Positions 11,881-39,022 of a stretch of 64,000 nucleotides of DNA are shown here, in pieces (the first letter of the stretch is position 1; every line of letters begins with the position of its first letter). The notes under the pieces are model-generated. The model ran no database searches, had not been told where the DNA came from, and saw only the letters and a program-made list of their open reading frames with translations. The translations under genes and the position numbers were made by a program. This DNA comes from an uncultured Gammaproteobacteria bacterium (GTDB lineage: Bacteria > Pseudomonadota > Gammaproteobacteria > Steroidobacterales > Rariloculaceae): contig CAWJDS010000017.1 in NCBI GenBank assembly GCA_963841645.1, forward strand, positions 215,609-279,608. Direction: 5' to 3'.

Positions 11881-12090
11881 CTACTTGGCCAGCGGCGCCT
11901 GCTCGTCCAACGCCGCGGGCGGCACGGCGGGCTTCAATACAGGGTCCGCCGCGGTCTGCGCGGGCGTGATGACGCCGCTGACCGGCGTAGCACGGCTCGC
12001 TGCAGCACGCGACGCGTGCACGTTCGAACCGAGGGTCAGCAACACGCCGGCGAGCGCGCCGACGAGTATCGAAATCAGCGTGCCCCTCAT
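11881..12090 (-). CDS. small membrane-anchored hypothetical protein (69 aa)
   Basis: The ATG overlaps the amidohydrolase stop (ATGA at 12087-12090). N-terminal TM/signal segment MRGTLISILVGALAGVLLTLGS. No family recognised. Confidence 0.4.
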   Translation of the reverse strand: MRGTLISILVGALAGVLLTLGSNVHASRAAASRATPVSGVITPAQTAADPVLKPAVPPAALDEQAPLAK

Positions 12091-13359: not shown

Positions 13360-13473
13360 TTCGCTGCCCCCGGGGAAAACGCGCACAGTTTACGCAGCGC
13401 GTTAGTGATCTGCCATTAGGAAACCGTAAGGTTGGCGGGCGCTGTCGATACCCGGCTCGCGCGCCCGCAAGAG

Positions 13474-19683: not shown

Positions 19684-19727
19684 TTTCAGGATTCCTCTAG
19701 GCTGGCCCGACAACAACAATCCGCGGG

Positions 19728-20292
19728 GTGATCGCCGTGAAATCGTTCGGGACTCGAAGCGGGGCATTCTTGAGCGCGGTGGGTCTCGCCTGGGCCTTCG
19801 CGCTAGCTTCTTCCTCGGCGTGGTCCGCCGAGGAGCTCAAGGCAGAGAACGTGGTCGACCGTCTGCAGATCCAGGACCTGATCACGCGCTACTACAACAA
19901 CTTCGGCCGGGAGAATCCGGAGAACTTCTCCGACTTCTACGCCGACGACGCCGAGCTGATCCTCGGCGACCGGCACTTCAAGGGCAAGGACGGCATCATG
20001 CAGGCCTATGGCCGCGGCCCTCCGCAGGCCGATCAGCCGCCGCGACCACCGCGCCCGACGCGTTATTCGTTCATCGTGACCGTCAGCAATCCGTTGATCG
20101 TCGTCCACGGCAAGACGGCGACGGCTCAGCTCGTCTATACCGAGTACGTCATCGAGAAGCAGGGCGATCCGCTCAAGGTGACCACGCAAGGTAAGGAATA
20201 CAGCACTTTCGTGAAGGTGGACGGCCGCTGGCGTTACAAGACGCGCCAGATCAAGGGCGGCACGCGAGCTGCCGGAAGGCTGGAAAGAGTAG
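19728..20292 (+). pseudogene. secreted NTF2-like (SnoaL/DUF4440-type) protein (frameshift ~20265, close to the 3' end)
   Basis: Signal AFLSAVGLAWAFALASSSAWSA. VVDRLQIQDLITRYYNNFG...VDGRWRYKTRQIKGG is in frame 3. The final ELPEGWKE-stop (TAG 20290-20292) is in frame 1. Confidence 0.65.
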
Positions 20293-25381: not shown

Positions 25382-26761
25382 TTAACGCCGCGCCGAGCCT
25401 GCAACGGTCGTGGAGGCGGGCGGCCCGACGAGCGCGACGACCGGCTCAGTGCGTACCGCGCCGCCGACGAGTCCATTGCCATAGGTCTCGTCGACGCCTT
25501 TCGCGCCGAGGTCGACGGCTTGCGCGACGAGCTCTGCGACGGCCTGCCGCGCAGCTCGAGCGTCCGGCTCGCGCATGCGCGCAGCGAGCAGCCCCGCAAC
25601 GATCGGAGCCGCGAACGAGGTGCCACGAACTGCCGCGAACGACGGCGCGAGCAGGGCGGCCGCCATGTCGGCGCCCGGCGCCGCGAAGGTCACTTGCGGA
25701 CCGCGGCACGCTTCCACGAGCGCCTTTTGCCGCGCATCGACGCCCGTCACGCCGACGACGCCGGGATAGGCCGCGGGATATAGCGGCGCAGCCGCCGGTC
25801 CGTCGTTGCCGACGGCGGCGACGACGATGAAGCCGCGCGCGATGACGGCTCGCACGGCGCCTTCGAGCGCGACGTTGCGCGGACCGACGAGGCTCACGTT
25901 GATGACAGGCACGCGCTCGTGCGCGATCCAGCTGATCGCTTCGACGACCGCGTCGACGGCGCCGCCGTCGGCGAGCCCGCAGTAGACGTCCGCGGCATAG
26001 AGCTCCGCGTCCGGCGCTGCGCCGTGAAACCGCTCCGACCGGCCGATCAGCAGCGATGCGACCGCCGTGCCGTGCGCACTCGGGATCGCCTTGTCTGCGC
26101 ACCCGTGCTGATGAATCAGCGCGTCCTTGAATACCGGATGCGTCGCGTCGACGCCGCCGTCGACGAGCCCGATGCGCGTGGCCACCGGTGCGGTCGGCGC
26201 GGCGCGCTCGGTCGCTGGCTCGACGTTTGCGGGCGAAACGGCCTCGGTATCGACGTCGCCGCTATCGAGATAGATGTGATTGAAGTCGTACGCGCCGCTC
26301 GGATCGAGCGCCCGCAGACGCGCGAGCGCGCGGCGCGTCGACAACCCGGCTGGCGCGCGCAGCACGACGATGCGCGCGTCGAGCCCGTCGAGCACATTGT
26401 CGCGCAGCACGACGAATCCGGCGGCGCGCGCGGCGGCGATCGCGGTGTCGGTTGGCGAGAACGCGACGATCTCGGCGCGCATCACCGGGGCGCCGTTCGG
26501 GTCGCGCTCGACGGTTGGGCGCTGGGTTCGCAGCAGCTCGCGGATGCGCACGTCGCGCAAGCTCGTGAGCCGCCGCACGTCGAGGTCGCGCGCGACGCCG
26601 TTCGCGGTGCCGGTAACCGGGTCGCCGATGCTCGGCAGGGTCACGCCGGGCACCGTCGGGGCAGGCAAGCGCGGCAGCTGCGCGAGCGCGGCCGGCGAGA
26701 GCGCGAGCATCGCGCCAACGGACAAGAGACCCGCTCCGAGTTTGATCCGGCCGTTGCGCAT
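25382..26761 (-). CDS. S8 family (subtilisin-like) serine peptidase, exported
   Basis: Catalytic triad contexts IGLVDGGVD (Asp), SAHGTAVASLL (His), RGTSFAAPIVAG (Ser), plus VAAVGNDG. Signal peptide LGAGLLSVGAMLALSPAALA. Intact 459 aa. Confidence 0.85.
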   Translation of the reverse strand: MRNGRIKLGAGLLSVGAMLALSPAALAQLPRLPAPTVPGVTLPSIGDPVTGTANGVARDLDVRRLTSLRDVRIRELLRTQRPTVERDPNGAPVMRAEIVAFSPTDTAIAAARAAGFVVLRDNVLDGLDARIVVLRAPAGLSTRRALARLRALDPSGAYDFNHIYLDSGDVDTEAVSPANVEPATERAAPTAPVATRIGLVDGGVDATHPVFKDALIHQHGCADKAIPSAHGTAVASLLIGRSERFHGAAPDAELYAADVYCGLADGGAVDAVVEAISWIAHERVPVINVSLVGPRNVALEGAVRAVIARGFIVVAAVGNDGPAAAPLYPAAYPGVVGVTGVDARQKALVEACRGPQVTFAAPGADMAAALLAPSFAAVRGTSFAAPIVAGLLAARMREPDARAARQAVAELVAQAVDLGAKGVDETYGNGLVGGAVRTEPVVALVGPPASTTVAGSARR

Positions 26762-26840
26762 GCGGTCACATTAGTCGAATGTTTGGCCGGCAGGGAGGCT
26801 CGGAAGAAAATCACCTCGCCGATCGTAGTGAGATTGAGAC

Positions 26841-27347
26841 ATGGGTCACGCGCCTGAAGCGGTGCAACGGCAACTCGTCGAGATTCTGCCTCGGCTGCGG
26901 CGCTTTGCACGCACGCTGACGAGGAACTCGCACGACGCCGACGACCTCGTGCAACTCGCGGTCGAGCGCGCATTGTCGCGGCTCGATCAGTGGCGGCCCG
27001 ACTCGAGGTTGGATAGCTGGATGTTCGGCATCATTCGCAACGCGTGGATCGACGAGACGCGCGCGCAGAAGCGACGCAATCGCTTGTTCACCGTCGCCGA
27101 GGCCGGCGAGAACGTCGCCGATGCCGCGAGCGAGGCGCACATCCATCGCCTGTCCGTCGAGGCGGCTCTCGAGCGGTTGCCGGAGGAGCAGCGCATGGTC
27201 GTGGCGCTCGTGCTGATCGAGGGCTACGCGTACAAGGAAGCGGCCGCGGTGCTCGAAGTGCCGATCGGCACCGTCACGAGCCGGCTCGCGCGAGCGCGCG
27301 AAACGCTCGAGGCTCTGCTCGGTGGAGCGGAAGGAGGTTTGCCGTGA
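26841..27347 (+). CDS. ECF-type RNA polymerase sigma-70 factor
   Basis: Region 2 DADDLVQLAVERALSRLDQW...SWMFGIIRNAWIDETR. Region 4 LPEEQRMVVALVLIEGYAYKEAAAVLEVPIGTVTSRLARARETL. Confidence 0.9.
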   Translation: MGHAPEAVQRQLVEILPRLRRFARTLTRNSHDADDLVQLAVERALSRLDQWRPDSRLDSWMFGIIRNAWIDETRAQKRRNRLFTVAEAGENVADAASEAHIHRLSVEAALERLPEEQRMVVALVLIEGYAYKEAAAVLEVPIGTVTSRLARARETLEALLGGAEGGLP

Positions 27348-28117
27348 GCATTCCCGACGAAAAGCTGATGGCGTATGCGGACGGCGAGCTCGACGCTGTC
27401 GAGCGCGCGCAAGTCGAGGCGGCGATCGACGCCGATCCATCGCTCGCCCGCCGTGTCGAGAACCATCGCGCGCTGCGGTCGAAGGTGAGCAGCGCGTACG
27501 ACTCGGTGCTCGACGAGCCGGTCCCCGAGCGTCTGCTGAATGCAGTCCGCGGTAAGTCGACCGCCGCCCCCGACAACCGAGTCGCGGATTTCGGTCGGGC
27601 TTGGGCGGCGCGCAGCCAAGACAAGGTTGTCGTGCGCGCGGCCTGGGGCTTACCGCAGTGGGGCGCGATCGCGGCGAGCGTCGCCGTCGGCATCGTCGTC
27701 GGCCGAGGCGTGCTCATGTCGCCGCGAGGTTCGGTCGGCCCGATCGGCACGGAAGGCGGCGTTCTCGTTGCGCACGCGGCCCTCGACGAAGCGCTTACGA
27801 ACCAGCTCGCGAGCGAGCAGTCACGCTCGGCGTCCGTGCAGATCGGCGTGAGCTTCCGTGCGAAGGGCGGCGAGCTATGTCGCACGTTCTCGATCCGCCA
27901 GGCGGACACGTTGAGCGGCCTTGCCTGCCGCGAAACGAACGCGTGGAGCGTGCGGGTGCTCGCGCGCGCCGAGGGCGGGCAGACGCGGCCCGGGAACTAT
28001 CAACAGGCCGGCTCCGAGATGGCGGTGGCTGTGCGCGAGACCGTCGACGCTGAGATCGCAGACGAGCCGCTCGATGCCGCGGCCGAAGCGGCGGCTCGGA
28101 AGAACGGCTGGAAATAG
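27344..28117 (+). CDS. membrane-spanning anti-sigma factor (partner of the ECF sigma)
   Basis: The GTG overlaps the sigma stop (GTGA), with aaggagg upstream. N-terminus LMAYADGELDAVERAQVEAAIDADPSLARRVENHRAL. Single TM segment WGAIAASVAVGIVVGRGVL. Periplasmic C-terminal domain with two Cys. Confidence 0.75.
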   Translation: MSIPDEKLMAYADGELDAVERAQVEAAIDADPSLARRVENHRALRSKVSSAYDSVLDEPVPERLLNAVRGKSTAAPDNRVADFGRAWAARSQDKVVVRAAWGLPQWGAIAASVAVGIVVGRGVLMSPRGSVGPIGTEGGVLVAHAALDEALTNQLASEQSRSASVQIGVSFRAKGGELCRTFSIRQADTLSGLACRETNAWSVRVLARAEGGQTRPGNYQQAGSEMAVAVRETVDAEIADEPLDAAAEAAARKNGWK

Positions 28118-28180: not shown

Positions 28181-29758
28181 CTAGCGCGCCGAGCTGAACA
28201 CCGTTCTGCCGCCGACCATCGTCAGCGTCGGCTTGATTCGTCTGATTTCGGCCGCCGGCACGGTCATGTAGTCGCGGTCGAGCACGACGAGGTCCGCCTG
28301 CTTGCCGACCTCGAGCGATCCGAGCGTGTTTTCCTGGAAGAACAGGTACGCATTCGAGCGCGTGTGTGCGATCAGCGCTTCCTCCCGCGTCAGCGTCTCG
28401 TCGAGCACGCGGTTGCCGCCGACGTCGAGCCCGCTCACGAGCCAGCCGAGCGTCACGAATGGGTTGTAGTGCGACACGATCGTCGCGTCGGTTCCGAGGC
28501 CGAACACGATGCCGCTATCGGCGATCTGCCGCAGCGGCATGTGCGCGCCGGCTTGCATAGCAGCGCCATGCACGCCGAGCGTGAGCCCCATGGCCTTCGC
28601 GCGTGCAATGTTCTTCGGTGAGATGTCGTACACGTGGCCGAGCGTCCAGCGCAAGCCGTTCAACGGCTGCGTTGCGTTCACCTTCTCCAGAGTATCGAGC
28701 AAGTCGGTGACGGCCGAGTTGTTGATCACGTGCTGATGGACGTGCCAGCCCGCGCGTGCCGCGACCGTGGCAAGCTTGCCGTACTCGGTCATGATCTCCG
28801 CGGGCCACGGGTCCTTGCGCGGCGCGAGGTCGAAGAACGGCCCATAGAGCACCTCGGCGAGGCCGAAGATGCCGTGCTGGCCGTCGAACTGATTCGGGCG
28901 CGTGCGTGCAATGAGCTCCGCGGCCTTGGCCGCCGACGCGGAATCGTGCGCGTCGTACGCGAGCGTCTCCCAGAGCCGAACCGGTAGCGGACCCTTAGCG
29001 GCTCGGGCCGCGAGGAGGGACGACTGTCCGAGACTGTAGACGCCCGTCAGACCGACGGAATTTAGCTCTTGCAAGAAGTCCGTGAGGTTCTGCTCGAGCT
29101 GCGCGGGCGACGTCGACGGCATCGCATCGTAGAGCGCGTAGGGGGGCTGGAACGACACGAGGCCGGTCGCGTTGCGTCGCGCGCCGTCGGCTGGGTCGAG
29201 CTTCACCGACTCGAGCGCAAGGCTGTTCGCGTAAACGACCGCATAGCCTTCTTGCACGAAGAGTGGATTCTTCGGCGCGACGCCGTCGAGCTCGGCCAGC
29301 GTGAAGCCGCCCGGCGCGTCGGCGAACTGCCGCGGCGTCCAACCGCCTTGCACCATGATCCAATCGCCGGGGTTCAAGGCTCTTGCTTTCGCCGCGAGCA
29401 ACGCGAGCGCGTCGTGTCTCGAGTCGACGCCTTCGAAACGCACCTGCTGTTGCCACGTCTGCACCGCGCGCGTGAAATGGAAGTGGTTGTCGATGAGCCC
29501 CGGGATCACGGTCGCGCCCGCGACGTCGATGACCTTCGTGTCGCGCCCCGCGTAGCGACGCATCTCCGCGCTCGTGCCGCGCGCGACGATCCGCCCGTCC
29601 TTGATCGCGAGCGCCTCGACGATGCCGAAGCTCGCGTCGACCGTGAGTATCTGGCCGTTCGTGACGACTGTGTCGGCGCTCTGCTGTGCGAGCGCAGCCC
29701 CCGACGTCGAGAGCAACGCGAGCACGAGCCCGAGGCTCGCCGAGTTCGTTCGATTCAT
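28181..29758 (-). CDS. exported amidohydrolase (amidohydrolase-3/YtcJ-like)
   Basis: Signal SLGLVLALLSTSGAALA. GATVIPGLIDNHFHFTRA, HVHQHVINN, LGVHGAAM, GLGTDATIV, GSLEVGKQADLVVLDRD. Intact 525 aa. Confidence 0.85.
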   Translation of the reverse strand: MNRTNSASLGLVLALLSTSGAALAQQSADTVVTNGQILTVDASFGIVEALAIKDGRIVARGTSAEMRRYAGRDTKVIDVAGATVIPGLIDNHFHFTRAVQTWQQQVRFEGVDSRHDALALLAAKARALNPGDWIMVQGGWTPRQFADAPGGFTLAELDGVAPKNPLFVQEGYAVVYANSLALESVKLDPADGARRNATGLVSFQPPYALYDAMPSTSPAQLEQNLTDFLQELNSVGLTGVYSLGQSSLLAARAAKGPLPVRLWETLAYDAHDSASAAKAAELIARTRPNQFDGQHGIFGLAEVLYGPFFDLAPRKDPWPAEIMTEYGKLATVAARAGWHVHQHVINNSAVTDLLDTLEKVNATQPLNGLRWTLGHVYDISPKNIARAKAMGLTLGVHGAAMQAGAHMPLRQIADSGIVFGLGTDATIVSHYNPFVTLGWLVSGLDVGGNRVLDETLTREEALIAHTRSNAYLFFQENTLGSLEVGKQADLVVLDRDYMTVPAAEIRRIKPTLTMVGGRTVFSSAR

Positions 29759-29813
29759 TTCTCATCCGCCCATCTGTTGCCGGTGAGCATTATGTTCCAC
29801 CGGAGAAATCGCG

Positions 29814-29846
29814 CACGCGCGCGAAGCAGGATCTCTCGCGCGCGTG
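29814..29846. promoter_or_regulatory. 11-bp perfect GC-rich inverted repeat (cacgcgcgcga-N11-tcgcgcgcgtg) in the divergent region upstream of the kinase/RRE operon
   Basis: Read directly. All 11 pairs are Watson-Crick. It lies between the amidohydrolase start (29758) and the operon, next to the lowest-GC stretch of the region (29875-29955). Operator or attenuator role is inferred only. Confidence 0.3.
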
Positions 29847-31004
29847 TCCGCCGGCTTTCAGCCTCTACAACTAGGCTATGTAAAGGTGAGGCAGTCGTCC
29901 GACCCGAGATCCAATAGACTGACGCCGTTGCTTAAACCGGACCAACAAATAATACCGGTGGAGCGAGTCCCTTTCGCGCTATTGGAGACGGGATTCGCGC
30001 GCGCTTGCGACGCCCATCCGGCCGCCTTCTCCGAGTTCGATGTCGGAGTCGCCGGCTTTCGCCTCCGCGTAGAAGTAGTCGGGACGGATCTCGCCGCTAC
30101 CATGCGCCGCGCGTTCAGCCACCTGATCGTGCCAAAAGCGGCGGCACAGCCGGATCTCGCGCTGCGCGTGTGGGACGAAGCTGCGACCGGGATCAAAGTG
30201 CCCGGGCAGTTCAGTCGAGAGCGCCGGCGCGACGGCGACGTCGAGATCCTGCTCAAGATCTCGGAAGACGGCCGCTACGTTTGCGAGCAGCGCGACTTGA
30301 GCGTGAGCTGGCTCGATACCGTTTCGAGCCGCATCGTGGGCTGCGTGTCGTCAGCACGCTGTCAATATCTCGACGAGCGTGCGCGGCCCTATCACAAGTT
30401 GATTTCCGCGTGGCTCGACGAGCGCGGCATCCAGTTCGTGCACGCCGGGCTCATCGGCTCGGGCGATACCGGTGTGCTCTTCGTCGGCAACGGCGGCGCG
30501 GGAAAGTCGACGTCGTCCGTGGCGTGCCTACGAGCCGGTCTCGGCTACCTCGGCGACGACTTCGTCGGCATCGAGAGCAACGAAGGAACCTACACGGGGC
30601 ACGGCTTGTTCTCGTCGTGCTTGCTCGACGTCCATCACCTCGAGCGTTTCCCAGATCTCAAGCGGCACGCGGTGCCGGCGCACCAGGACTTCGAGGACAA
30701 ATCGATTCTCTACCTGGCGGACATGTACCCCGGCACCTTGCGCCGCTCGGTGCCGATCGCAGCGGTCATGCTCCCGCGCGTCGTGCGCAAAGAGGAGACG
30801 ACCTACCGACGCGCGTCCAAAGCCCAAGCCCTGTTCGCGATCGCGCCCACGTCCGTGATGTTCCTGCCCCGTCCGAGTCAAAGGGCATTCGACCGCGTAG
30901 CCGATCTCGTCGAGCGCGTGCCCGCGTATTGGCTGGAGCTCGGCAGCAACGTCGACCGAATACCCGACGCCGTGAGAGCGCTGGCCGCGGAAGTGAGTCA
31001 CTGA
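29844..31004 (+). CDS. HPr-kinase-like (HprK-related) P-loop serine kinase
   Basis: FVHAGLIGSGDTGVLFVGNGGAGKSTSSVACLRAGLGYLGDDFVGIE resembles the HprK C-terminal P-loop core. Coordinates are the maximal ORF. GTG 29844 lies inside the inverted repeat, so GTG 29958 (VERVPFALLETGF...) is the more likely start. Confidence 0.75.
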   Translation: MSAGFQPLQLGYVKVRQSSDPRSNRLTPLLKPDQQIIPVERVPFALLETGFARACDAHPAAFSEFDVGVAGFRLRVEVVGTDLAATMRRAFSHLIVPKAAAQPDLALRVWDEAATGIKVPGQFSRERRRDGDVEILLKISEDGRYVCEQRDLSVSWLDTVSSRIVGCVSSARCQYLDERARPYHKLISAWLDERGIQFVHAGLIGSGDTGVLFVGNGGAGKSTSSVACLRAGLGYLGDDFVGIESNEGTYTGHGLFSSCLLDVHHLERFPDLKRHAVPAHQDFEDKSILYLADMYPGTLRRSVPIAAVMLPRVVRKEETTYRRASKAQALFAIAPTSVMFLPRPSQRAFDRVADLVERVPAYWLELGSNVDRIPDAVRALAAEVSH

Positions 31005-31005
31005 G

Positions 31006-31698
31006 ATGCCGCTCACCGTGACCTGTGTGATCCCGGCGTACAACGCGGCGCGCTATCTCGAGCGCGCTCTGACGAGCGTGCTCGATCAGTCTCGGCCGCC
31101 GGATGAGATCATCGTCGTCGACGACGGGTCGACGGACGGGACGGCCGGCGTGCTAGCCACATTCGGTGCGCGCCTGCGCGTGCTGCGCCAAGAGAACGCC
31201 GGCCCCGCCGCGGCGCGGAACAGAGGCATCGAGGTCGCGGCGGGGGAGCTCGTCTGCTTCCAGGATTCGGACGACGAATGGCATCGCGACAAGCTCGCGA
31301 AGCAGCTCGCGTTGCTCGATGCCCGCCCCGACGTCGGTGTCTGCGTTACGCACGTGCGTAACGTCTGGGCCAAACATCTCGATCACGAACGGCTGGCCCT
31401 CGGTGACCATGCGTCCGCCAACGATCCGCCGGGTTACGTTTTTCAGGCGTCGCTGATACGACGCGAGGTCTTCGAACGCGTCGGCATGCTGGACGAGACG
31501 CTGCGCCGCGCGGAAGACATCGAGTGGTTTGCGCGCGCACGAGACGCGGGCGTCACGGTCGAGGTCTTGGCTGACGTGCTCGTGTATCGGCACCTGCACG
31601 GGCAGAACGTTTCGTATGTGGGCGAGCGCACCGCGTCTGCCCGCTACGAGCAGCTTCTCGAAATCGTGGCGGCACGGCTCAAGAAGCAGCGCGCTTAG
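31006..31698 (+). CDS. family 2 glycosyltransferase (paralogue 1)
   Basis: VTCVIPAYNAARYLERALTSVLDQSRPPDEIIVVDDGSTDGT, NAGPAAARNRG, FQDSDDEW (DXD). The start lies 2 nt after the kinase stop. Confidence 0.85.
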   Translation: MPLTVTCVIPAYNAARYLERALTSVLDQSRPPDEIIVVDDGSTDGTAGVLATFGARLRVLRQENAGPAAARNRGIEVAAGELVCFQDSDDEWHRDKLAKQLALLDARPDVGVCVTHVRNVWAKHLDHERLALGDHASANDPPGYVFQASLIRREVFERVGMLDETLRRAEDIEWFARARDAGVTVEVLADVLVYRHLHGQNVSYVGERTASARYEQLLEIVAARLKKQRA

Positions 31699-31716
31699 CA
31701 CCGAGCTTGGCATTCA

Positions 31717-31756
31717 GGGAAGAAAAAATATGATTAGGGAGGAAAAAACATGATCG
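31717..31756 (+). repeat. 20-bp tandem duplication of an A-rich SD+ATG module (gggaagaaaaaatatgatta / gggaggaaaaaacatgatcg)
   Basis: Read directly; 16/20 identical. The first copy opens a 7-codon mini-ORF (ATG 31730 ... TGA 31751-31753, MIREEKT). Its stop overlaps the PqqD-like ATG at 31750 (ATGA). Confidence 0.5.
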
Positions 31757-32160
31757 GTAGCAAGGACACACTGGCGATTCGGCGGCGCGAAGTGGCCGCT
31801 AAGGTGATCGACGGGGAAGCGATCCTGATCAATCTTTCGACCGGCCAGTACTACAGCATGGGCGATGTCGGCGGGCGCGTCTGGTCGTTGATCGAGCAGA
31901 ACTGCAACAGCGAGGGCATCGCAACGGCTATCGCGGCAGAGTACGACGTGCCGGCCGCGACGGCGGCTGCGGATGTCGCCGAGCTCGTGGCTGATCTCGC
32001 CGCGGAAAACCTCATCGAGCCGAACCGTGCCGTCGGCGGTGCGACTCCGGTCGCGCGCTCGTCGAGCAAGGCCGCTTACAGGAAGCCCGAGCTGTCCAAA
32101 TTCAGCGACATGGCCGAGATCTTCGCGATGGACCCGCCGTTGCCCGGGCTTGCCCAATGA
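31750..32160 (+). CDS. PqqD-family / RiPP recognition element (RRE)-like protein with ~45-aa C-terminal extension
   Basis: RRREVAAKVIDGEAILINLSTGQYYSMGDVGGRVWSLIEQNCNSEGIATAIAAEYDVPAATAAADVAELVADLAAENLIE matches the PqqD pattern. Tail: NRAVGGATPVARSSSKAAYRKPELSKFSDMAEIFAMDPPLPGLAQ. Confidence 0.8.
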   Translation: MIGSKDTLAIRRREVAAKVIDGEAILINLSTGQYYSMGDVGGRVWSLIEQNCNSEGIATAIAAEYDVPAATAAADVAELVADLAAENLIEPNRAVGGATPVARSSSKAAYRKPELSKFSDMAEIFAMDPPLPGLAQ

Positions 32161-32858
32161 GCGAGCCGAGCCACTCGGGGCTCGTCACGTGCGTGATTCC
32201 GGTGTTCAACGGCGAGCGGTATCTCGCCGAGGCGCTGGATAGCGTGCTGACGCAGACCCATTCGCCGATCGAGATCATCGTCGTCGATGACGGCTCGACG
32301 GACGGCACGCCCGATGTCCTCGCCGGCTACGGCGGCGACATCAGGAGCGTGCGGCAGGCTAACGCGGGCCCCGCGGCCGCGCGCAATCGCGGCGTGGCGG
32401 ACGCGCGCGGCGAGTATCTTGCGTTCTTGGACTCCGACGACCTTTGGGCCGTGTCGAAGACCGAGATTCAGCTTCGTCGTTTTGCGAGACATCCGGGACT
32501 GTCGGTCTGCACGTCGTTGATGCAGAACTTCTGGGCGGATCTCGCGGACGAAGAGGCGCGCATGAAGGACACGGAAGTGGCGCGGCCGCAAGCGGGGCCG
32601 AGCCAGACGCTGATGGTGCGCAGAGCCGCGTTCGATCGCGTCGGTCCCTTCGATCCCACGCTGCGCCACCGCGATGCGCACGACTGGCTGGTTCGCGCCC
32701 GGGCAGCCGGCTTGCAGTTCGGGCAAGTCGACGAGGTGCTCGTTCGCCGGCGTCTGCACGCGAACAACCTGAGCCGCTCGCGGGGGATCGGAGACACGGA
32801 AGACCTGTTCGCGATTCTTCGCAAGAAGCTCGCTGCGCGCGACGCGCTGGGGCGCTGA
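32157..32858 (+). CDS. family 2 glycosyltransferase (paralogue 2)
   Basis: VTCVIPVFNGERYLAEALDSVLTQTHSPIEIIVVDDGSTDGT, NAGPAAARNRG, FLDSDDLW. The ATG overlaps the PqqD-like stop (ATGA). Confidence 0.85.
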   Translation: MSEPSHSGLVTCVIPVFNGERYLAEALDSVLTQTHSPIEIIVVDDGSTDGTPDVLAGYGGDIRSVRQANAGPAAARNRGVADARGEYLAFLDSDDLWAVSKTEIQLRRFARHPGLSVCTSLMQNFWADLADEEARMKDTEVARPQAGPSQTLMVRRAAFDRVGPFDPTLRHRDAHDWLVRARAAGLQFGQVDEVLVRRRLHANNLSRSRGIGDTEDLFAILRKKLAARDALGR

Positions 32859-32868
32859 GCTCGCGCCG

Positions 32869-34062
32869 ATGACGAGCACCGTCTCCGACGCATGGATCGC
32901 GTTGCTCGCGAGCATCGTTCCGGCCGAGCCAGCGGCCGGCCTGCTCCGTGCCATGCTCTGGGACGGTGCGGCGGCGCGCGCACAGTGGTCGGCGTGGACG
33001 CAATCGATCGGCGACCCGCGCAAGTTCTTCGAGCGTGACTACCTCGGCCGCAAGGGGTTGCTCGCGTTTCTCGGCCACCGGCTCAGCGAGAACGAGGTCG
33101 ACACCGGGCCACACTTCGCGACCTACGTGCGCGTCGCGCGAGTTCGCGAGGAGCTGCGCAGCCGCATCTTCATCGACACGTTGCAAACCGTGCACCACCG
33201 CCTGCAGGACGCCGGCTTGGAACCGATACTCGTCAACGGTGCCGCGTATGCGTTCACCGTCTACTCGCAACCGCTCGTTCGGCACAACCATGGAATAGAC
33301 CTGTTGTTGCGCGCGGACGAGCTCGGTGCCGGAGAACGCGCAGTGACGGCCGCCGGTTTTCGCCTCCAGCGGACGGACACGTTGCCGCGCGCCGTTCTAA
33401 AGACGTACCGGCATGCCTCCGGGCTCGAGCTTACGATGCGTTCGCGGCTTTACCTTGCACCGCACGTTGAGAATGAGCCGACGGACTTTTCGTCGCGCTG
33501 CGAATGGATTTCGGTGGGCGAGTCTCGAGTTCGCGTGCTCGCGCCGGCCGACCGGCTCTGCCACACGCTCGCAGAAAGCGCCGCATCGTCCACACGCGGC
33601 AATCTCCGTTGGGTTTGCGACGCCTACCTCTTGCTTCGCCGCGCCGAGCAGCTCGATTTCGACCAGGTCGTCGAGTCCGCTCTCCACCTCGGCACGGCGT
33701 TGCCGACGGCATTGCTGCTCGAGTTCTTTCGCGCCGGTCTCGGGCTCGAGATTCCGGCACACGTCGTCGCAGAGCTCCGCGACCGCGGTGTGCCGCGCGG
33801 CGCGGTGGGCTCGAATCTGATTCTGTCAGCCGCATTGCGGACGTCGACGTCGGTCGCTGCTTTCTTGCGCCGCGCGCGAGACCGGCACTCCTTGTTTCGC
33901 AGCGCCGCGTACTTCGCTCTGTTTCCCACCGCCGAGCACATCGCTTACCAGCATCGCCCGTCGGCCGAGTGGAAGATCCCGTGGCTCTATGCCGCGCGGG
34001 TGGGCCGGCTCGTGGCCCGTCCGTTCCGCGGATTGCGGACGTTGCGCGTGGTGGCGTCATGA
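32869..34062 (+). CDS. PF14907-like 'uncharacterised nucleotidyltransferase' family protein, paralogue 1 (degenerate active-site motif)
   Basis: Same length and architecture as the next gene. The motif region reads ILVNGAAYAFTVYSQPLVRHNHGIDLLLRADEL, where paralogue 2 has KG...DLDFLV. Confidence 0.7.
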   Translation: MTSTVSDAWIALLASIVPAEPAAGLLRAMLWDGAAARAQWSAWTQSIGDPRKFFERDYLGRKGLLAFLGHRLSENEVDTGPHFATYVRVARVREELRSRIFIDTLQTVHHRLQDAGLEPILVNGAAYAFTVYSQPLVRHNHGIDLLLRADELGAGERAVTAAGFRLQRTDTLPRAVLKTYRHASGLELTMRSRLYLAPHVENEPTDFSSRCEWISVGESRVRVLAPADRLCHTLAESAASSTRGNLRWVCDAYLLLRRAEQLDFDQVVESALHLGTALPTALLLEFFRAGLGLEIPAHVVAELRDRGVPRGAVGSNLILSAALRTSTSVAAFLRRARDRHSLFRSAAYFALFPTAEHIAYQHRPSAEWKIPWLYAARVGRLVARPFRGLRTLRVVAS

Positions 34063-35264
34063 AGCTCCAGCTCGACCCCGCCGCCGCGTTGGTCGCGACG
34101 TGCGCTCGCTGCACGTTCGACGATCGCCAGCGCCGCGATATCCGCGCCGTGTTGGAGCGCGGCGTCGATTGGGAGCGGGTGCTTGCACTGGCGGAGAAGA
34201 ACTTCGTCCTGCCGCTCCTGTTCGAGAGCCTAGAAACGCTTCGAGAGCTCGTCCCTGAAGCCGTCTATGCGCGGCTCGCGAAGCAGCGCAAGCTCGCGAG
34301 GTTCCGCGGCGAGCTCTTCGTGGACGAGCTGATCCGCATCTCGGCCTCGCTCGAAGCCGCTGGCATCACCGTCCTCCACTACAAGGGACCGGTGAGCTCG
34401 GCGCTCCTGTACGGCGATCGCTTCCGGCGCATGTACTTCGATCTCGATTTCCTCGTGCGCCGGGAGGATCTGCACGCGGTTTCGAATCTGCTGCGCAACG
34501 ACGGTTACCGCGCCGAGCACGATCTCGACGCGCTGTCTCAGGAGCAGTTCGAGCGCGAGCAAAAGGAATACACATTCACCTCGGGTCTGCTGTGCGTCGA
34601 GCCTCACTGGTCGCTGACGGCACGCCGTTATCCGTTCGCGATCGACTATGCACGACTCTGGGAGCGCGCCGTCGTCTACGATCTCGGCGGCACGAAGATT
34701 CACACGTTCGCGCCGGAGGACATGTTGCTGGTGCTCAGCATGGCGGGCGCGAAGGCAAAGTGGATGCGGTTGCAGATGGTGACGGACGTCGCGCAGTGGT
34801 ATCGATCGATGGATCCCACTCTCGCGGTGTCTGCGCTAGCGCACGCGAAGCGCCTCGGCTGCGAACGAATCTTGCTCGTCGGAGCGCATCTCGCCGAGAC
34901 ACTGCTCCAGGCGCCTATCCCGGCGGCGGTACGCGCGCGGGTCCGGGCCGACTACGCGGCCGTTCGAGAGCATTTCGGCGCGAGTAGTAAGGAGCCTGTT
35001 CTCGACCGACGTGAACGTGCCGCTGCTGCTCGGCGACTTGCGCACGTGTTCTCGCCGTTGCTATTTAGCATGCGCGAGCGCGCCCGCGACCGGCTTTTCT
35101 ACCTCGTGCAGACGACGACGACTCCGCTGCCCCAGCATTTGCTTCGCTTCCGCCTCCCCAAGTGGGCGTTCCCGGCCTACCGCGTCATCGTTCCGGCATA
35201 CGACTACGTGTTCGCGCCGATCTTCCGCGGTCTGCGAGCGCTCCTGTCGGCGCGCCTCGCGTGA
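34059..35264 (+). CDS. PF14907-like nucleotidyltransferase family protein, paralogue 2
   Basis: VLHYKGPVSSALLYGDRFRRMYFDLDFLVRREDLHAVSNLLRNDGY, then CVEPHWSL. The ATG overlaps the previous stop (ATGA 34059-34062). Confidence 0.75.
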   Translation: MKLQLDPAAALVATCARCTFDDRQRRDIRAVLERGVDWERVLALAEKNFVLPLLFESLETLRELVPEAVYARLAKQRKLARFRGELFVDELIRISASLEAAGITVLHYKGPVSSALLYGDRFRRMYFDLDFLVRREDLHAVSNLLRNDGYRAEHDLDALSQEQFEREQKEYTFTSGLLCVEPHWSLTARRYPFAIDYARLWERAVVYDLGGTKIHTFAPEDMLLVLSMAGAKAKWMRLQMVTDVAQWYRSMDPTLAVSALAHAKRLGCERILLVGAHLAETLLQAPIPAAVRARVRADYAAVREHFGASSKEPVLDRRERAAAARRLAHVFSPLLFSMRERARDRLFYLVQTTTTPLPQHLLRFRLPKWAFPAYRVIVPAYDYVFAPIFRGLRALLSARLA

Positions 35265-35347
35265 GCCTTCGCCGCGTCGATCGCGGCGCAGCGCGGCGCG
35301 AAGTCGGCGAGCGCTATACTCGTGCGCATTGCGGTCGTGGGGGTGCC

Positions 35348-36098
35348 ATGCGCGTCAACATCGTCATCGCGTCGGTCGTCGCCATCGTTTCTTGCGCCGT
35401 TGCGGTTGCCGCGCGCGCGCAAGCAGAGCGCGCCACCGCCGGCGCGTCGTCGTCGGCGCCCGTGGTCCCGGCGCGGCCCGCGCGGCGGAGCCGACTCCCT
35501 CGGGCGAGCGGCCGCGCGTCTTACGCCCCCCGCTGTTCCTCAGAGAAGACTGGAAGCAGATCCCAGGCGGCGGCGAGCACCCGGTGACGCCCGCGAGCGT
35601 CACGTGGCGAACGTCGAGCTCAAGCTCTACGGCGCGTCGAGCAAGGAGATTCAGCTCACTGGCGTCGATGGCGACGAGAACAACCCGACGCACGTCTGGA
35701 CGGGTCTCTGCACGACGCCGTGCGGGCTCGCGCTGCGCGACAAGACGCGCTACGTCGATCTCACCGGCCTCGCGCGGATTCGCTGGAACGTGAAGACGTC
35801 GGGTTTCCACGAGGTCCGGCCGATCGTGAAGCTCGCGGACGGCACGTGGCTCGTCGGCGATCACACCGACGCGTCGCCGCTCGACTGGCTCGTCGGCGAG
35901 CTGTCGATCGCGAGCTTGCGCTGGCTCAAACTGGATCCCGAGCGGCTCGTGACGACCGGCAACTTCGTCGACAAGCCGGACTTGAGCAAAGTCGACGAGG
36001 TCGGCTTCGTCGATCTGATGCCGGCGAGCGGACACGGCCCCGGTGGCTGGTCCGATGTCGCGCAGATCGAGGTCTACGGCAAGCCCGTGCCGCGCTGA
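35348..36098 (+). pseudogene. exported hypothetical protein (two frameshifts in the first third as read)
   Basis: MRVNIVIASVVAIVSCAVAVAARAQA is in frame 2. EPTPSGERPRVLRPPLFLREDWKQIPGGGEHPVTPASV is in frame 1. ANVELKLYGASSKEIQLTGVDGDENNPTHVWTGLCTTPC...VAQIEVYGKPVPR-stop is in frame 3. Confidence 0.55.
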
Positions 36099-36183: not shown

Positions 36184-36501
36184 GTGCAGTTCACGAAGCG
36201 CCTTCGCGAGCCGATCAAGCGCGGCGAGATCACGTGCAGCGTGCGGATCTGGCAGAAGCCGCACGTGCGGGTCGGCAATCGCTATGCGCTGCCGCCGGGA
36301 AGCATCGTCGTCGACGCGCTGCACCGGATCGACTTCGACGACATCACGCCCGCGCTCGCTCGTCGGTCCGGCTTCGCGGGCGTCGTCGATCTGCTCAAGG
36401 TCGCGAAGCACGGGCCGGGTAGGAACGTCTATCTCGTCGAGTTTCACTACGATCCCGGCTCAGAGGCCGCGGCGCTGCGCTCTCGTAGAACGCGGAGTTG
36501 A
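36184..36501 (+). CDS. small ASCH-domain-like protein (105 aa)
   Basis: MQFTKRLREPIKRGEITCSVRIWQKPHVRVGNRY... resembles the ASCH N-terminal pattern. GTG start. The 3' end overlaps the convergent gene by 55 nt. Confidence 0.5.
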   Translation: MQFTKRLREPIKRGEITCSVRIWQKPHVRVGNRYALPPGSIVVDALHRIDFDDITPALARRSGFAGVVDLLKVAKHGPGRNVYLVEFHYDPGSEAAALRSRRTRS

Positions 36502-37065
36502 GCCCGTCGATACGCAACCATCGCGACGAACAGAGCGCACGCGATGCCGACGGCCGCGGGGAACAGGACGGTCGTCCACGAGTAGTGCTCCAGCGCGGCG
36601 ATGGCGACGGCGTTGCGCAGAGCGCCGAGCGAATAGAAGCCGATGTGCTCCTCGTGCGGACGGAGGAACGCGAAGCGGAACGTCGGAACGAATCCGGCCA
36701 GGTCCATCCCGGTCAGAAGCACGACGGCGACTAGCGGGTTGGAGCGTCAAGAGCCAGCAGGGCAACGCCGCGAGCGCGATCACGAGGAAGACCCAGTCGA
36801 CCTTCGTGATCGAGGTATCGGAGCGGCCTCTGTAGGCGAGAACCGCGATGCAGGCCGTGATGATTCCGGACACTCCGGTCGGCCACGCGCCCAGGCCGCC
36901 GCGGTCCGCGAGCTGGGCCAAGAACACGACGAACGTGCCGAGCCCCCAGACGATCCAGGAGAACGCGTGCGGCTTGGTTTGCCCGGCGAGTATCGATCGC
37001 ACGTAAGGCACGAACGCGACGAACGTCAGAACGATGGCCGCAGCGGCGAGGAGCTCCTTGTACAT
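36447..37065 (-). pseudogene. hypothetical multi-pass membrane protein (one frameshift ~36730 as read)
   Basis: MYKELLAAAAIVLTFVAFVPYVRSILAGQTKPHAFSWIVWGLGTFVVFLAQL... continues after a frame change as LLTGMDLAGFVPTFRFAFLRPHEEHIGFYSLGALRNAVAIAALEHYSWTTVLFPAAVGIACALFVAMV. Confidence 0.5.
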
Positions 37066-38078: not shown

Positions 38079-39022
38079 TCAGACGATATCCGGCATCAGC
38101 GTGTTGTGATGCGCCCACATGCCCTTGTACGCGTCGTACGCGAACTTGTGCGGGTCGTGCCACTCACGGCCGGTGTCGGCGATCACGCCCGCGGCCAAAA
38201 TGTCCTCGGCGCTCGTTGCCCTTGCGCACGAGCTCGACGTAGCGCTCGAACAGCTTGAGCATCATGTCGTGCTCCTTTTGCACGTCCGCGCGGCCGATCA
38301 CCGGTCCATAGCTTGGCACGATCTTCGTGCGCGCATCGCCGAGCTTGAGCAGCAGCGCGAGCGAATCGACGCGGCCGCCGAGCCAGCCGCCGCCGAACCA
38401 ATCGAGCTCGGGATCGCGCAGCGGCGACACCGCGTCGCCGACGGCGAGCACGTTCTGGTCGCGGAAGTAGACGTAGATGTCGCCGTCGGTGTGCGCCTCG
38501 AGCAGGTAGCCGTACTCGATCCGCTCGCCGCCGATCTTGGTCTCGCCCGTCGTGTAGAAGGTCTCCGCGGGTTGCGCTTCCTTCGGCACCGGCTTCTGGT
38601 AGCGGTCTTCCTTCGGCAAGTAATAGCCGTACGCGAGCCGTTGCCGCGTCTTCTCGTGCGCGACGATGTGCGCGCCCGCGCGCCCCAACGCCTCGTTCGA
38701 GCCGATCTGCTCCAGGTGCCAATGGGTGTTGAAGAGCGTGTGGACGTGCGCGCCGTTCGGCAGCGCGGCGAGTGCCGCGACGAGCGGCGCGCCGGACGAC
38801 GGCCGCGCCGCTGTCGACGACCACGAGCCCGTCGCCGGTCGAGAGCGCGAGCACGTTGCCGCCCGCGCCCGAGAGCACGGCGAGCTTGTCCGTCACGCGC
38901 GTCGTTTGGATCGCGTCCGCCGCGCGCGCGCGCCACGTGAGCGGCGCGAAGGCGAGGCCGGCGCACGCGCCGAGCGCACCGTGCAGCACGGCTCGACGGC
39001 GAATCGTTGGGGCTCGGGACAT
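38079..39022 (-). pseudogene. Tat-signal MBL-fold metallo-hydrolase (at least two or three frameshifts as read)
   Basis: MSRAPTIRRRAVLHGALGACAGLAFAPL, LAVLSGAGGNVLALSTGDGLVVVDSG, then ORF 38164-38688 (GERIEYGYLLEAHTDGDIYVYFRDQNVLAVGD...WFGGGW). Tail EDILAAGVIADTGREWHDPHKFAYDAYKGMWAHHNTLMPDIV-stop at 38079-38081. Confidence 0.7.

Follow-up and report, generated by a model that had tools for sequence, protein, structure and literature searches.

The closest described systems are the linear polyphosphorylated peptide (LPP) clusters of Bacillota (Popov et al., Nat Commun 2026, PMC13381572) and the tailoring branch of lasso peptide biosynthesis. The LPP family combines an HprK-like kinase, an RRE and a nucleotidyltransferase (NTase) without a cyclase; its publication in 2026 has overtaken the statement of an earlier sequence-only reading of the locus considered here that such pathways had no experimentally defined product (PMC13381572). 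In pseudomycoidin, a hexose is added onto the phosphate in a PsmN-dependent manner (PMC8498205, PMC6993621), and the DxD motif of PsmN is essential, the D134A/D136A variant being inactive (PMC6993621). The leader motif bound by the lasso and LPP RREs is YxxPxL (PMC10368454, PMC13381572), and in the solved RRE-leader complexes the residues past the Leu of the motif extend the RRE sheet (PMC13381572).

In the window, i.e., the whole 64,000-nucleotide stretch of DNA analysed, six tightly packed ORFs of the same direction encode an HprK-like kinase (K), a GT2 glycosyltransferase, a PqqD-type RRE protein, a second GT2 and two PF14907 nucleotidyltransferases. The first gene lies 1 nt from the second, which lies 51 nt from the third; the third and fourth overlap in ATGA, as do the fifth and sixth, and 10 nt separate the fourth from the fifth. 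Their coordinates agree with the earlier description of six co-directional genes with small gaps or overlaps. No TM segments were found in any of the six proteins. The features are as follows:

29759..29927, + strand: 5' intergenic region upstream of the kinase gene (Rfam, promoter and ORF checks)
29844..31004, + strand: HprK-like P-loop kinase, K (weak PF07475 match, fold matches, motifs)
31006..31698, + strand: GT2 glycosyltransferase a (GT2a), 230 aa, soluble (PF00535, 125 bits)
31750..32160, + strand: PqqD-type RRE protein with a fused leader-like tail, 136 aa (PF05402, 61.9 bits)
31783..32019, + strand: RRE (winged-helix PqqD) domain, residues 12-90 (AF2 model, Foldseek, family profile)
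32020..32076, + strand: variable linker of the RRE protein, residues 91-109 (low conservation, low pLDDT)
32077..32145, + strand: conserved leader-like tail Y110-P132, YRKPELSKFSDMAEIFAMDPPLP (homologue conservation, AF2 model)
32131..32133, + strand: codon of the invariant Asp128 (Y+18), followed by Pro-Pro (tail alignment)
32157..32858, + strand: GT2 glycosyltransferase b (GT2b), 233 aa, soluble, paralogue of GT2a (PF00535, 116 bits)
32869..34062, + strand: nucleotidyltransferase NT1, degenerate-motif clade, RHNHGIDLL (PF14907, 88 bits)
34059..35264, + strand: nucleotidyltransferase NT2, catalytic-motif clade, FDLDFLV (PF14907, 170 bits)
34966..35038, + strand: out-of-frame patch inside NT2 (+1 then -1 indel vs orthologues)

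The intergenic region gave no Rfam match at E<=1 and no promoter-like site when one was looked for, and the Arg-rich read-through of 41 codons that forms its sole ORF lacks conservation. All six genes had been described as intact amid frameshifted neighbours. With the contig L001 (90.6% identical) as the reference for indels, this holds for K, GT2a, the RRE gene and GT2b, which show none, while NT1 differs by a single in-frame 3-nt indel; NT2, however, carries a compensated frameshift (+1 at 34966, -1 at 35038) that puts 24 codons in the wrong frame; read in the alternative one, this patch gives ...ARVVRSLFSTDVNVPLLLGD, which is orthologue-like. Uncompensated frameshifts do occur in the neighbouring genes (35265-36098 and 36447-37065).

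The kinase ORF opens at GTG 29844, and the lengths of its homologues (353-362 aa) make TTG 29928 the likely start, giving 358 aa. Its match to PF07475 (18.8 bits) lies below the cut-off of 33.3, and PF27840 ScmC was found on its homologues. The assignment to HPr-kinase-like P-loop proteins, made earlier from the motifs GNGGAGKST and GDDF, is supported at the level of the fold, since the AF2 model (pLDDT 92.5) matches PEPCK and HprK/P, with GNGGAGKST and GDD aligning to GDSGVGKSE and ADD of HprK/P. All kinase members retain the catalytic motifs, Walker A and DD. The suggested link to the HprK-type peptide kinases is strengthened by full-length homology (27% identity over residues 26-346) to the kinase domain of an LPP-like cluster, L042. 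HPr-rel-A and the HprK-related kinases A and B (TIGR04352, TIGR04353, TIGR04355) resemble the cassette as computationally defined pairs of an HprK-like kinase with a PqqD chaperone; membership in these families, previously entertained, was rejected, the kinase scoring 35 bits with TIGR04352 and 24 bits with TIGR04355 against a cut-off of 200, and the PqqD model TIGR04353 being absent from the NCBIfam matches of the RRE at E<=0.01.

Both GT2 assignments were borne out by the PF00535 scores given above; GT2a contains DDGSTD and DSDD, and the paralogues share 48% identity over 199 residues, the alignment clearly showing the more than half identity estimated by eye for the first ~90 residues. The two nucleotidyltransferases are likewise recognised by PF14907, the NT1 clade with the motif R-H-N-H-[GA]-I-D-L-L and the NT2 clade with R-x-[FY]-x-D-[LF]-D-[FI]-L, in which the DxD is conserved. 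Of the two losses that had been noted for NT1, that of the acidic residue is real and kept, every NT1 orthologue having G or A in place of the first Asp of the DxD, but the missing Lys is not a conserved trait, as several orthologues read K-G or K-A-G. We infer that NT2 is the catalytic and NT1 the degenerate partner of an NT2/NT1 pair.

The PqqD protein, earlier called RRE-like, is indeed an RRE, and of the lasso-B1 type. Its best NCBIfam match is the lasso PqqD model NF033536 (61.9 bits vs a cut-off of 80), its AF2 model (pLDDT 86) finds by Foldseek the TbiB1-leader complexes as best matches (36-39% identity, rmsd 0.9-1.4 A), and the family profile scores TbiB1 with 69.7 bits, the best matches including TbiB1, PbaB1 and LppB. 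The conserved pocket D75/L79/L83/L88 has the same spacing as D70/F74/M78/L83 of LppB.

Behind the variable linker, the protein carries a tail of the consensus Y-x2-P-x-L-x2-[FY]-x-D-M-x-[DE]-x-[FL]-A-[LM]-D-P-P-x-P, present in 90 of 95 homologues and more conserved than the domain itself (3.15 bits per column, vs 2.68 for the RRE domain and 1.10 for the linker). Its spacing is fixed across 222 unique tails, with D18 in every one. A tail-only profile matched 361 representative proteins; the matches listed are mostly of ~140-150 aa with the tail C-terminal, and the short ones examined were mostly fragment- or chimera-like. In the AF2 model the linker has low pLDDT and residues 111-120 reach a pLDDT of 93, with a strand at 116-118 directly after L115, from which confidence and secondary structure it is predicted that the YxxPxL docks on its own RRE in cis. 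Such a fusion has a rationale, because LppB is insoluble when the leader is absent (PMC13381572). Among the three substrates offered by the sequence-only reading (encoded elsewhere, very short, or the RRE tail itself), the last is thus favoured by the YxxPxL, the predicted cis docking and the absence of another leader-like ORF within 10 kb, and the pathway probably modifies the RRE protein itself. Among pathways of this type, modification of the RRE protein itself has no known example.

The phospho-Ser model of the earlier reading does not fit this tail, in which no Ser/Thr is conserved and 19 of 239 tails have neither, the invariant residue being an Asp. Asp128 occupies the register (Y+18) of the polyphosphorylated Ser3 of LppA and of the Ser that ends the precursor of L042, these two being the only comparators. 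LppA S3T and S3Y are not phosphorylated, and the known chemistry of the HprK-like RiPP kinases is Ser-specific; it cannot apply unchanged here, because the tail lacks a conserved Ser/Thr. An Asp acyl-phosphate would be labile, and we know of no precedent for it in this HprK-like kinase family. Conservation as extreme as that of the tail is usual for interaction motifs and not for a RiPP core. The same observations could be read in another way, possible though rather unlikely, in which the RRE-tail protein is not modified and serves as a permanently "loaded" adaptor, through the cis leader and an Asp mimicking phospho-Ser, that assembles or activates the kinase, NTases and GT2s, or inhibits them, the true acceptor being a sugar, polyphosphate, glycan or lipid-linked intermediate. 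The invariant Asp in place of any conserved hydroxyl residue and the manner of the tail's conservation agree with such a scaffold or pseudo-substrate, as do the RREs known to potentiate partner enzymes, the sugar and phosphate enzymes among the accessory genes, the GT, GtrA or PPK2 genes adjoining some loci, and the suggestion that PsmN may supply a glycosyltransferase substrate rather than glycosylate directly. The core of the cassette includes, however, no membrane GT, flippase or polymerase, most loci lie outside polysaccharide clusters, every kinase member keeps its catalytic motifs, and the nearest characterised relatives modify the RRE-bound peptide.

The set of K, RRE, GT2(s), NT1 and NT2 recurs in ~35 non-redundant loci of Gamma- and Alphaproteobacteria, Gemmatimonadota and Chloroflexi, with unrelated flanks and a shuffled gene order, and the arrangement is therefore not due to chance. 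In agreement with the earlier description, a cyclase, a B2 protease, an SpI-like peptidase and an exporter are all absent from the cassette, its immediate surroundings and the scanned ORFs of the window; an S8 peptidase 3 kb upstream keeps its synteny in the closest relatives only. Neither a lasso cyclase nor a B2 or SpI-like peptidase occurs in the ~35 loci, several of which lie on contigs of 0.2-5 Mb, and a search out to 10 kb from the cassettes whose RRE carries the tail gave no further leader-like ORF. It is on these grounds improbable that the cassette decorates in trans a lasso/LPP-type precursor or a YxxPxL protein encoded elsewhere, the tail merely regulating access to the RRE; so conserved a cis-bound tail would, moreover, compete with trans leaders. 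This was the first option of the earlier reading, and it draws on the coexistence of LPP and lasso clusters in Bacillota with shared enzyme types, on the 64 kb being the visible part of this genome, and on the Nif11-like small ORFs 9 kb off in the Emcibacter locus L008.

The accessory neighbours are sugar/phosphate enzymes: an epimerase (12 loci), GT4 (~10), SGL (8), a phosphodiesterase (8) and an HD-domain protein (7). With the two GT2s of the core, the epimerase, SGL or GT4 often adjoining and a Steroidobacteraceae locus (L005) amid GT2, GtrA and DUF6311 genes, a polysaccharide/LPS sugar-modification locus with an incidental PqqD-like protein might be considered; it is very improbable, since all six proteins are soluble, the flanks differ wholly from locus to locus, and the RRE with its leader-like tail, the most conserved element, is found in every cassette locus except L042. 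Embedding in polysaccharide/LPS loci, which had been named as a ground for refutation, is not consistent across the cassettes. The exception, a distant relative, has the split form, with a tail-less RRE and a separate 35-residue ORF bearing YVKPAI and Ser-terminal at Y+18, in addition to a GT2-RRE fusion, an S24/S26-like peptidase and an ABC-kinase fusion.

At about an even chance, the cassette belongs, as a self-contained relative, with the LPP and lasso-tailoring systems, the precursor leader having become a C-terminal extension of its own RRE, and the RRE would be the substrate or carrier because of this fusion. While the gene set with its conservation as a unit, the tail motif with its register and the fold matches are observations, every chemical step of this reading and the order of the steps we infer as follows. 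The RRE domain would, as predicted, bind its own tail in cis through the YxxPxL, and the invariant segment further along, D-M-x-[DE]-x-[FL]-A-[LM]-D-P-P-x-P, would be left on a flexible arm; the kinase, the NT2/NT1 pair and the two soluble GT2s may then work on this arm. The likeliest site would be the invariant Asp128, which lies as far past the Tyr (18 residues) as the polyphosphorylated Ser does in LPP precursors, and the putative phospho-glycosylation by the cassette would likely leave a phosphate-linked sugar decoration. This would remain on the 15-kDa cytoplasmic protein, as the cassette has no peptidase, exporter or signal peptide.

The cassette shares with the LPP clusters the lack of a cyclase, a discrete lasso-like RRE, an HprK-like kinase (to the point of full-length homology with that of L042), an uncharacterised NTP transferase, frequent sugar-enzyme neighbours, and an RRE-bound leader motif, YxxPx[VL], with the functional residue 18 positions past the Tyr. 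It differs from them in lacking the SpI-like leader peptidase and the core MsbA-like exporter, in having no separate precursor, because the leader is joined to the RRE C-terminus, in the Asp standing where LPP has the phospho-acceptor Ser, in a core of two NTases (one degenerate) and two GT2s, in hosts outside the Bacillota, and in an RRE profile that scores lasso B1 proteins above LppB. With the lasso tailoring of paeninodin and pseudomycoidin (PadeK/PsmK, PsmN), it has in common the HprK-like kinase and PF14907-type NTase together with a B1-type RRE, whereas the lasso cyclase, B2 protease, ABC exporter and C-terminal Ser precursor of these pathways are missing and dedicated GT2s stand beside the NTases. 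The TbiB1 and TfuB1 RRE-leader complexes (PDB 5v1v, 5v1u, 6jx3) show the same fold and logic of YxxPxL recognition, with the leader being a separate peptide there and tethered on the same chain by a variable linker of ~19 residues here.

The six genes of the cassette follow each other on the + strand in the ORF listing:

29844-31004, + strand: K, a HprK-like kinase
31006-31698, + strand: GT2a, the first GT2 glycosyltransferase
31750-32160, + strand: RRE, a PqqD-type protein of 136 aa
32157-32858, + strand: GT2b, the second GT2 glycosyltransferase
32869-34062, + strand: NT1, the first PF14907-type nucleotidyltransferase
34059-35264, + strand: NT2, the second PF14907-type nucleotidyltransferase

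The close packing noticed in the sequence-only reading was confirmed by this listing, with a 1-nt gap, a 51-nt gap and two ATGA overlaps. The Pfam gathering score was reached by both GT2a (125 bits) and GT2b (116 bits) for PF00535, and by both NT1 (88 bits) and NT2 (170 bits) for PF14907; the two GT2 proteins carry the DxD motif as DSDD and share 48% identity across 199 residues, and the two nucleotidyltransferases share 24%. No transmembrane segment, peptidase Pfam family or Pfam match to the Asn-synthetase-like cyclase family was found in the six proteins. The cassette is a conserved six-protein cytoplasmic set that includes an RRE with a leader-type tail.

The same reading had considered all six genes intact among frameshifted neighbours, which holds for five of them. 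Compared with the metagenome contig L001 (90.6% DNA identity to the window), K, GT2a, RRE and GT2b contain no indels and NT1 a single in-frame one, while NT2 carries +1 at 34966 and -1 at 35038 relative to the orthologues, so that 24 codons (34966-35038) are out of frame; the other frame of this patch reads ARVVRSLFSTDVNVPLLLGD, matching the orthologues, and the indel pair reflects an assembly error or a genuine compensated frameshift. Downstream of NT2, the genes at 35265-36098 and 36447-37065 contain uncompensated frameshifts relative to L001, and the window assembly appears prone to indels. Frameshift-split or truncated neighbours were seen at 35162-36098, 36447-37065, 38164-39022, 2248-3006 and 11881-13386, among them a secreted protein with its signal peptide in a different frame, a membrane protein, an MBL-fold protein, and fragments of a Proton_antipo_M protein and an amidohydrolase. 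The gap between GT2a and RRE (31699-31749) is the richest in indels relative to L001 (8 indels) and holds the sole sigma-70-like site of the region in the promoter and terminator scan (TTGGCA-16-TATGAT, 31707-31734), a count not above that of shuffled sequences. Rfam gave no match at E<=1 over 29000-36000 and none at gathering thresholds across the whole window, and PADLOC found no defence-system match among the six proteins. An S8 subtilase, an ECF sigma factor and a zf-HC2 anti-sigma factor are located upstream (25382-28117), before an amidohydrolase; their synteny with the cassette is restricted to its closest relatives, L001 and L002, and is absent in L003 and more distant loci. The window also encodes, at 18007-19767, a 586-aa protein made nearly entirely of ankyrin repeats (Ank_2, 219 bits).

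The PqqD-type protein matched PF05402 with 61.9 bits, and its best NCBIfam model was the lasso PqqD chaperone NF033536, also at 61.9 bits, which is below the cut-off of 80. Its assignment as an RRE, proposed before any search, is borne out by structure and profile comparison: TbiB1 and TfuB1 were best in Foldseek, where the AF2 model retrieved first 5v1v and 5v1u, in which TbiB1 is bound to its leader (36-39% identity, rmsd 0.9-1.4 A), and also 6jx3, and the RRE family profile scored 69.7 bits on TbiB1, 57.6 on PbaB1 and 38.3 on LppB, followed by TfuB1 and PqqD. The near-invariant residues D75, L83 and L88, together with L79, reproduce the spacing of D70/F74/M78/L83 of LppB, which hold the Tyr, Pro and Val of its leader (PMC13381572).

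In the orthologue alignment, a PqqD domain (~12-90) is joined by a variable linker (91-109) to a C-terminal tail (Y110-P132), which is the best conserved part, with 3.15 bits per column against 2.68 for the domain and 1.10 for the linker. The tail follows the pattern Y0-x-x-P3-x-L5-x-x-[YF]8-x-D10-M11-x-[DE]13-x-[LF]15-A16-[LM]17-D18-P19-P20-x-P22, whose spacing is fixed over 222 unique tails and which is followed by 3-24 variable residues. Within this set, which was gathered by a scan anchored on P3, [DE]10, [ML]11 and P19 and to which the counts apply, Y0 occurs in 215 tails, L5 in 202, D10 in 216, M11, A16 and P22 in 220 each, P20 in 221 and D18 in all 222. The tail was present in 90 of the 95 word-index homologues, and a tail-only profile run against 1.84 billion representative proteins retrieved 361 proteins (clusters at 50% identity), which among the matches listed were mostly ~140-150 aa long, with the tail at residues ~105-138. 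The same search yielded no convincing stand-alone tail peptide. The short matches were considered as free peptides and rejected, most of those examined being PqqD fragments truncated at the N-terminus, chimeras produced by frameshifts or, for one of them, an adapter artefact. Beyond P22 the region is subfamily-specific, as follows from its differing ends: a large subfamily (e.g., the homologues P0160, P0181 and P0222) bears an extra conserved G-L-x-D-[IM]-[PA]-W-x-[DE] after PPxP, the Sphingomonadales-type tails end abruptly in AAPR, and the Chloroflexi form reads LLDP[IV]HEVD..GWP. In one homologue of 175 aa (P0264), the leader motif is duplicated (PYASPQL ... PYEAPQL) and the end is the variant FDPPWP.

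The tail begins with YxxPxL, a motif which in leaders occupies positions -17 to -12 and is recognised by the RREs of the lasso B1 type (PMC10368454). In crystal structures, lasso and LPP RREs bind its variant [Y/W]xxPx[L/V/I/F/A] in the same manner, and the residues directly after Leu lengthen the beta-sheet of the RRE (PMC13381572). In the AF2 model (mean pLDDT 86, with the linker at low confidence), residues 111-120 reach pLDDT 93, a beta-strand (116-118) immediately follows L115, and a short helix (121-125) precedes a region in which the confidence drops. This pattern of confidence and secondary structure predicts a tail docked in cis on its own RRE with the distal end free. The PDB sequence search gave nothing for NT2 and a single chance match for the tail peptide.

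The contexts of the kinase homologues (158 in the search, chiefly metagenomic) display one gene set in varied order with unrelated flanks. Gene order is identical to that of the window in L003, whose neighbours differ; the cassette is arranged in two divergent halves in L005 and L006 (Steroidobacteraceae) and L009 (Pseudomonadales) and reordered in L007 (Arenicellales), and in L008 (Emcibacter) one GT2 is replaced by a GT4. The scan of GTDB species representatives detected 34 loci, almost all MAG-derived, in Gamma- and Alphaproteobacteria and Gemmatimonadota, with one each in Chloroflexi, in Margulisiibacteriota and on a contig binned to Kuenenia. Over 35 non-redundant loci, K and RRE were counted in all 35, GT2 and PF14907 in 34 each, the second nucleotidyltransferase being divergent in the alphaproteobacterial form, and the accessories included an NAD epimerase (12), GT4 (~10), SGL/gluconolactonase-like proteins (8), a PF01663 phosphodiesterase (8), an HD-domain protein (7) and an MFS transporter (5). 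After the cassette of an Arenicellales MAG (OZ244194.1; L007/L018, 15666-18975) there are a GT1, an extra GT2 and a polyphosphate kinase 2 (PPK2); the last is a suggestive neighbour for a kinase that has polyphosphorylating relatives. In Emcibacter sp. SYSU 3D8 (L008), small ORFs of 57 and 56 aa lie ~9 kb upstream (535-708 and 1010-1180) among Rieske oxygenase genes, with one weak Nif11 match.

It had also been stated that a cyclase, a leader peptidase and an exporter are lacking, and the six proteins and the window ORFs scanned agree with this. No lasso cyclase or B2 protease was found in the Pfam-annotated loci (called genes of L001-L009) or in these ORFs, and in the loci with a tail-bearing RRE, as in the window, neither an SpI-like peptidase nor a homologue of the S24/S26-like peptidase from the distant split locus L042 was detected. 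A MsbA-like ABC exporter lies outside the cassette and within 10 kb of it in just ~6 of the 35 loci, and among the window ORFs scanned only an unrelated ABC-2 pair was seen, at a distance of 12 kb. The search for leader-like ORFs around each cassette, up to 10 kb away, gave nothing beyond sporadic chance matches. A substrate encoded in trans is quite unlikely, as leader-like ORFs, cyclases and peptidases are all missing from the vicinity of some 35 loci and a tail bound in cis would compete with a leader supplied in trans. Polysaccharide genes adjoin the cassette only sometimes (L005, L007), so that the consistent embedding in polysaccharide loci, which the sequence-only reading had weighed against its own proposal, was not observed. 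An interpretation as a polysaccharide locus, with the PqqD protein as a mere bystander, is very improbable, since no other element is as conserved as the RRE-tail and the six proteins are all soluble.

The kinase scored weakly against the available profiles, with 18.8 bits for PF07475 (under the cut-off), 35.2 for TIGR04352 and 24.4 for TIGR04355 (cut-offs 200), and the RRE gave no NCBIfam match to TIGR04353 (HPr-rel-A PqqD) at E<=0.01. Accordingly, the cassette does not belong to TIGR04352/04353/04355, the scores being far under the cut-offs. The assignment as a kinase is firmer from the fold: the AF2 model of K (pLDDT 92.5) matched PEP carboxykinases over both domains (E 2e-11) and HprK/P over the P-loop domain (E 1e-7) in Foldseek, and in the family profile alignment its GNGGAGKST...GDD stands opposite GDSGVGKSE...ADD of HprK/P. 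The Walker A loop (G177/G180/G182/K183/T185/S187) and the acidic pair (D200/D201) are invariant in the family, which together with the fold places K in the HprK/P-PEPCK group.

As for the nucleotidyltransferase pair, all NT1 orthologues read R-H-N-H-[GA]-I-D-L-L (G-I-D in the window) and the NT2 orthologues R-x-[FY]-x-D-[LF]-D-[FI]-L (D-L-D in the window); thus, the first Asp of DxD was lost across the NT1 clade, and the motif is retained by NT2. Of the degeneracy noticed earlier in NT1, the lost acidic residue is common to all its orthologues, and the missing Lys is not a conserved position. The double mutant D134A/D136A of PsmN has been shown to abolish hexose addition (PMC6993621). The two genes overlap by ATGA and occur together in almost every locus, and the best reading is probably that of NT2 as the catalytic protein with NT1 as its degenerate conserved partner.

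We give about even chances to the general model of a cis-leader module that acts on its own RRE protein. The tail is predicted to bind this RRE through Y110, P113, L115 and the strand 116-118, leaving the distal segment D-M-A-E-x-F-A-[LM]-D-P-P-x-P as a putative recognition and acceptor arm for the enzymes. The kinase would act at Y+18, here a carboxylate, by analogy with LppK, PadeK and PsmK, after which NT2/NT1 may add a hexose or a nucleotide to the phosphate and the two GT2 proteins may extend it, by analogy with PsmN. For want of a peptidase, an exporter and a signal peptide, the product would stay on the 15-kDa protein in the cytoplasm. The residue at Y110+18 is Asp128, and the Asp at this position, found in 222 of 222 tails, is the sole invariant functional residue; the tail has no conserved Ser or Thr, both being absent downstream of the Tyr in 19 of 239 tails. 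Ser119, which caps the N-terminus of the tail helix and bears a superficial resemblance to Ser46 of HPr, was rejected as an acceptor because this position varies (S/T/D/G/N/A/E/R, among others). The same invariant Asp could mimic phospho-Ser in an unmodified scaffold or pseudo-substrate, with the enzymes acting on a sugar or phosphate acceptor, which is a doubtful reading of some weight. Within the cis-leader model, the more specific chemistry is unlikely: the HprK-type kinase would phosphorylate the carboxylate of the Asp in D-P-P on the RRE-tail as a dedicated carrier, and the acyl (poly)phosphate would then be nucleotidylated or hexosylated by NT2/NT1 and extended by the two GT2 proteins. 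The Pro after Asp would block aspartimide formation on chemical grounds. Related kinases transfer phosphate to a phosphate oxygen during polyphosphorylation, a comparable chemistry (PMC8498205).

RREs are conventionally adaptors for a separate leader peptide. A leader covalently fused to its RRE, as seen across several phyla in a widespread family of 361 clusters at 50% identity, would be a new RiPP-type recognition architecture that blurs the border between RiPP maturation and protein post-translational modification, and genome mining keyed on a precursor ORF beside the RRE would miss this family. An Asp at the position that corresponds to the phospho-Ser of the LPPs raises a sharp question on the substrates of HprK-like RiPP kinases, and the constant presence of GT2 proteins and two PF14907 proteins, one of them degenerate, bears on the activity of PsmN and LppN, which were inactive or ambiguous in heterologous hosts. 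If the Asp-carrier chemistry were true, the cassette would represent the first RiPP-like system to unite RRE, leader and substrate in a single chain, its kinase would be the first of this HprK-type family directed at Asp, and its co-conserved GT2 proteins would explain the seeming need of PsmN/LppN for a partner glycosyltransferase. The literature searches, which also included PF14907 and whose coverage was incomplete so that absence is unproven, found no description of the cassette or of an RRE-leader fusion.

In comparison with lasso clusters, the cassette shares the B1-type PqqD RRE, but the cyclase, the B2 transglutaminase-like leader peptidase and the core are absent, and it is therefore not a lasso cluster. 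In a lasso precursor the YxxPxL leader is part of a separate peptide, Thr occupies position -2, and the core starts with Gly/Ala/Ser/Cys and has Asp/Glu at 7-9, whereas the tail, counted from L(-12), has Phe at -2 and only ~10 residues beyond. The LPPs have been reported in Bacillota from cyclase-free clusters, with precursors containing YxxPxVLxHQxIxFETxxS (Popov et al., Nat Commun 2026, PMC13381572); their kinase polyphosphorylates core Ser3, 18 residues past the Tyr, and leaves the S3T and S3Y variants unphosphorylated, LppN showed no activity in the heterologous host, and LppB needed the leader to be soluble (PMC13381572). The most distant kinase relative among the compared loci, L042 from a Margulisiibacteriota SAG (JBHPDY010000070.1, 3598-8524), whose kinase domain shares 27% identity with K over residues 26-346 (E 2e-38), belongs to a split cluster and is the only one with a separate precursor and Ser at Y+18. 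Besides a tail-less PqqD RRE (3598-3885) and a 35-codon ORF, MENNNTQQQEENTKEVYVKPAIEKHDQIQNIGMGS, with the C-terminal Ser at Y+18, this cluster encodes an S24/S26-like peptidase and two fusion proteins, one of GT2 with PqqD and one of an ABC exporter with the HprK-like kinase; it appears as a LPP-like cluster outside Bacillota. In the cassette under study, three of the four features defining LPPs are missing, namely the archaeal-type signal peptidase I-like leader peptidase (LppS), the MsbA-like exporter and the separate Ser precursor, in place of which the RRE itself carries the motif, with Asp at Y+18; what it shares with the LPPs is the enzymatic core of a discrete RRE, a HprK-like kinase and a PF14907-type NTP transferase, together with the leader logic.
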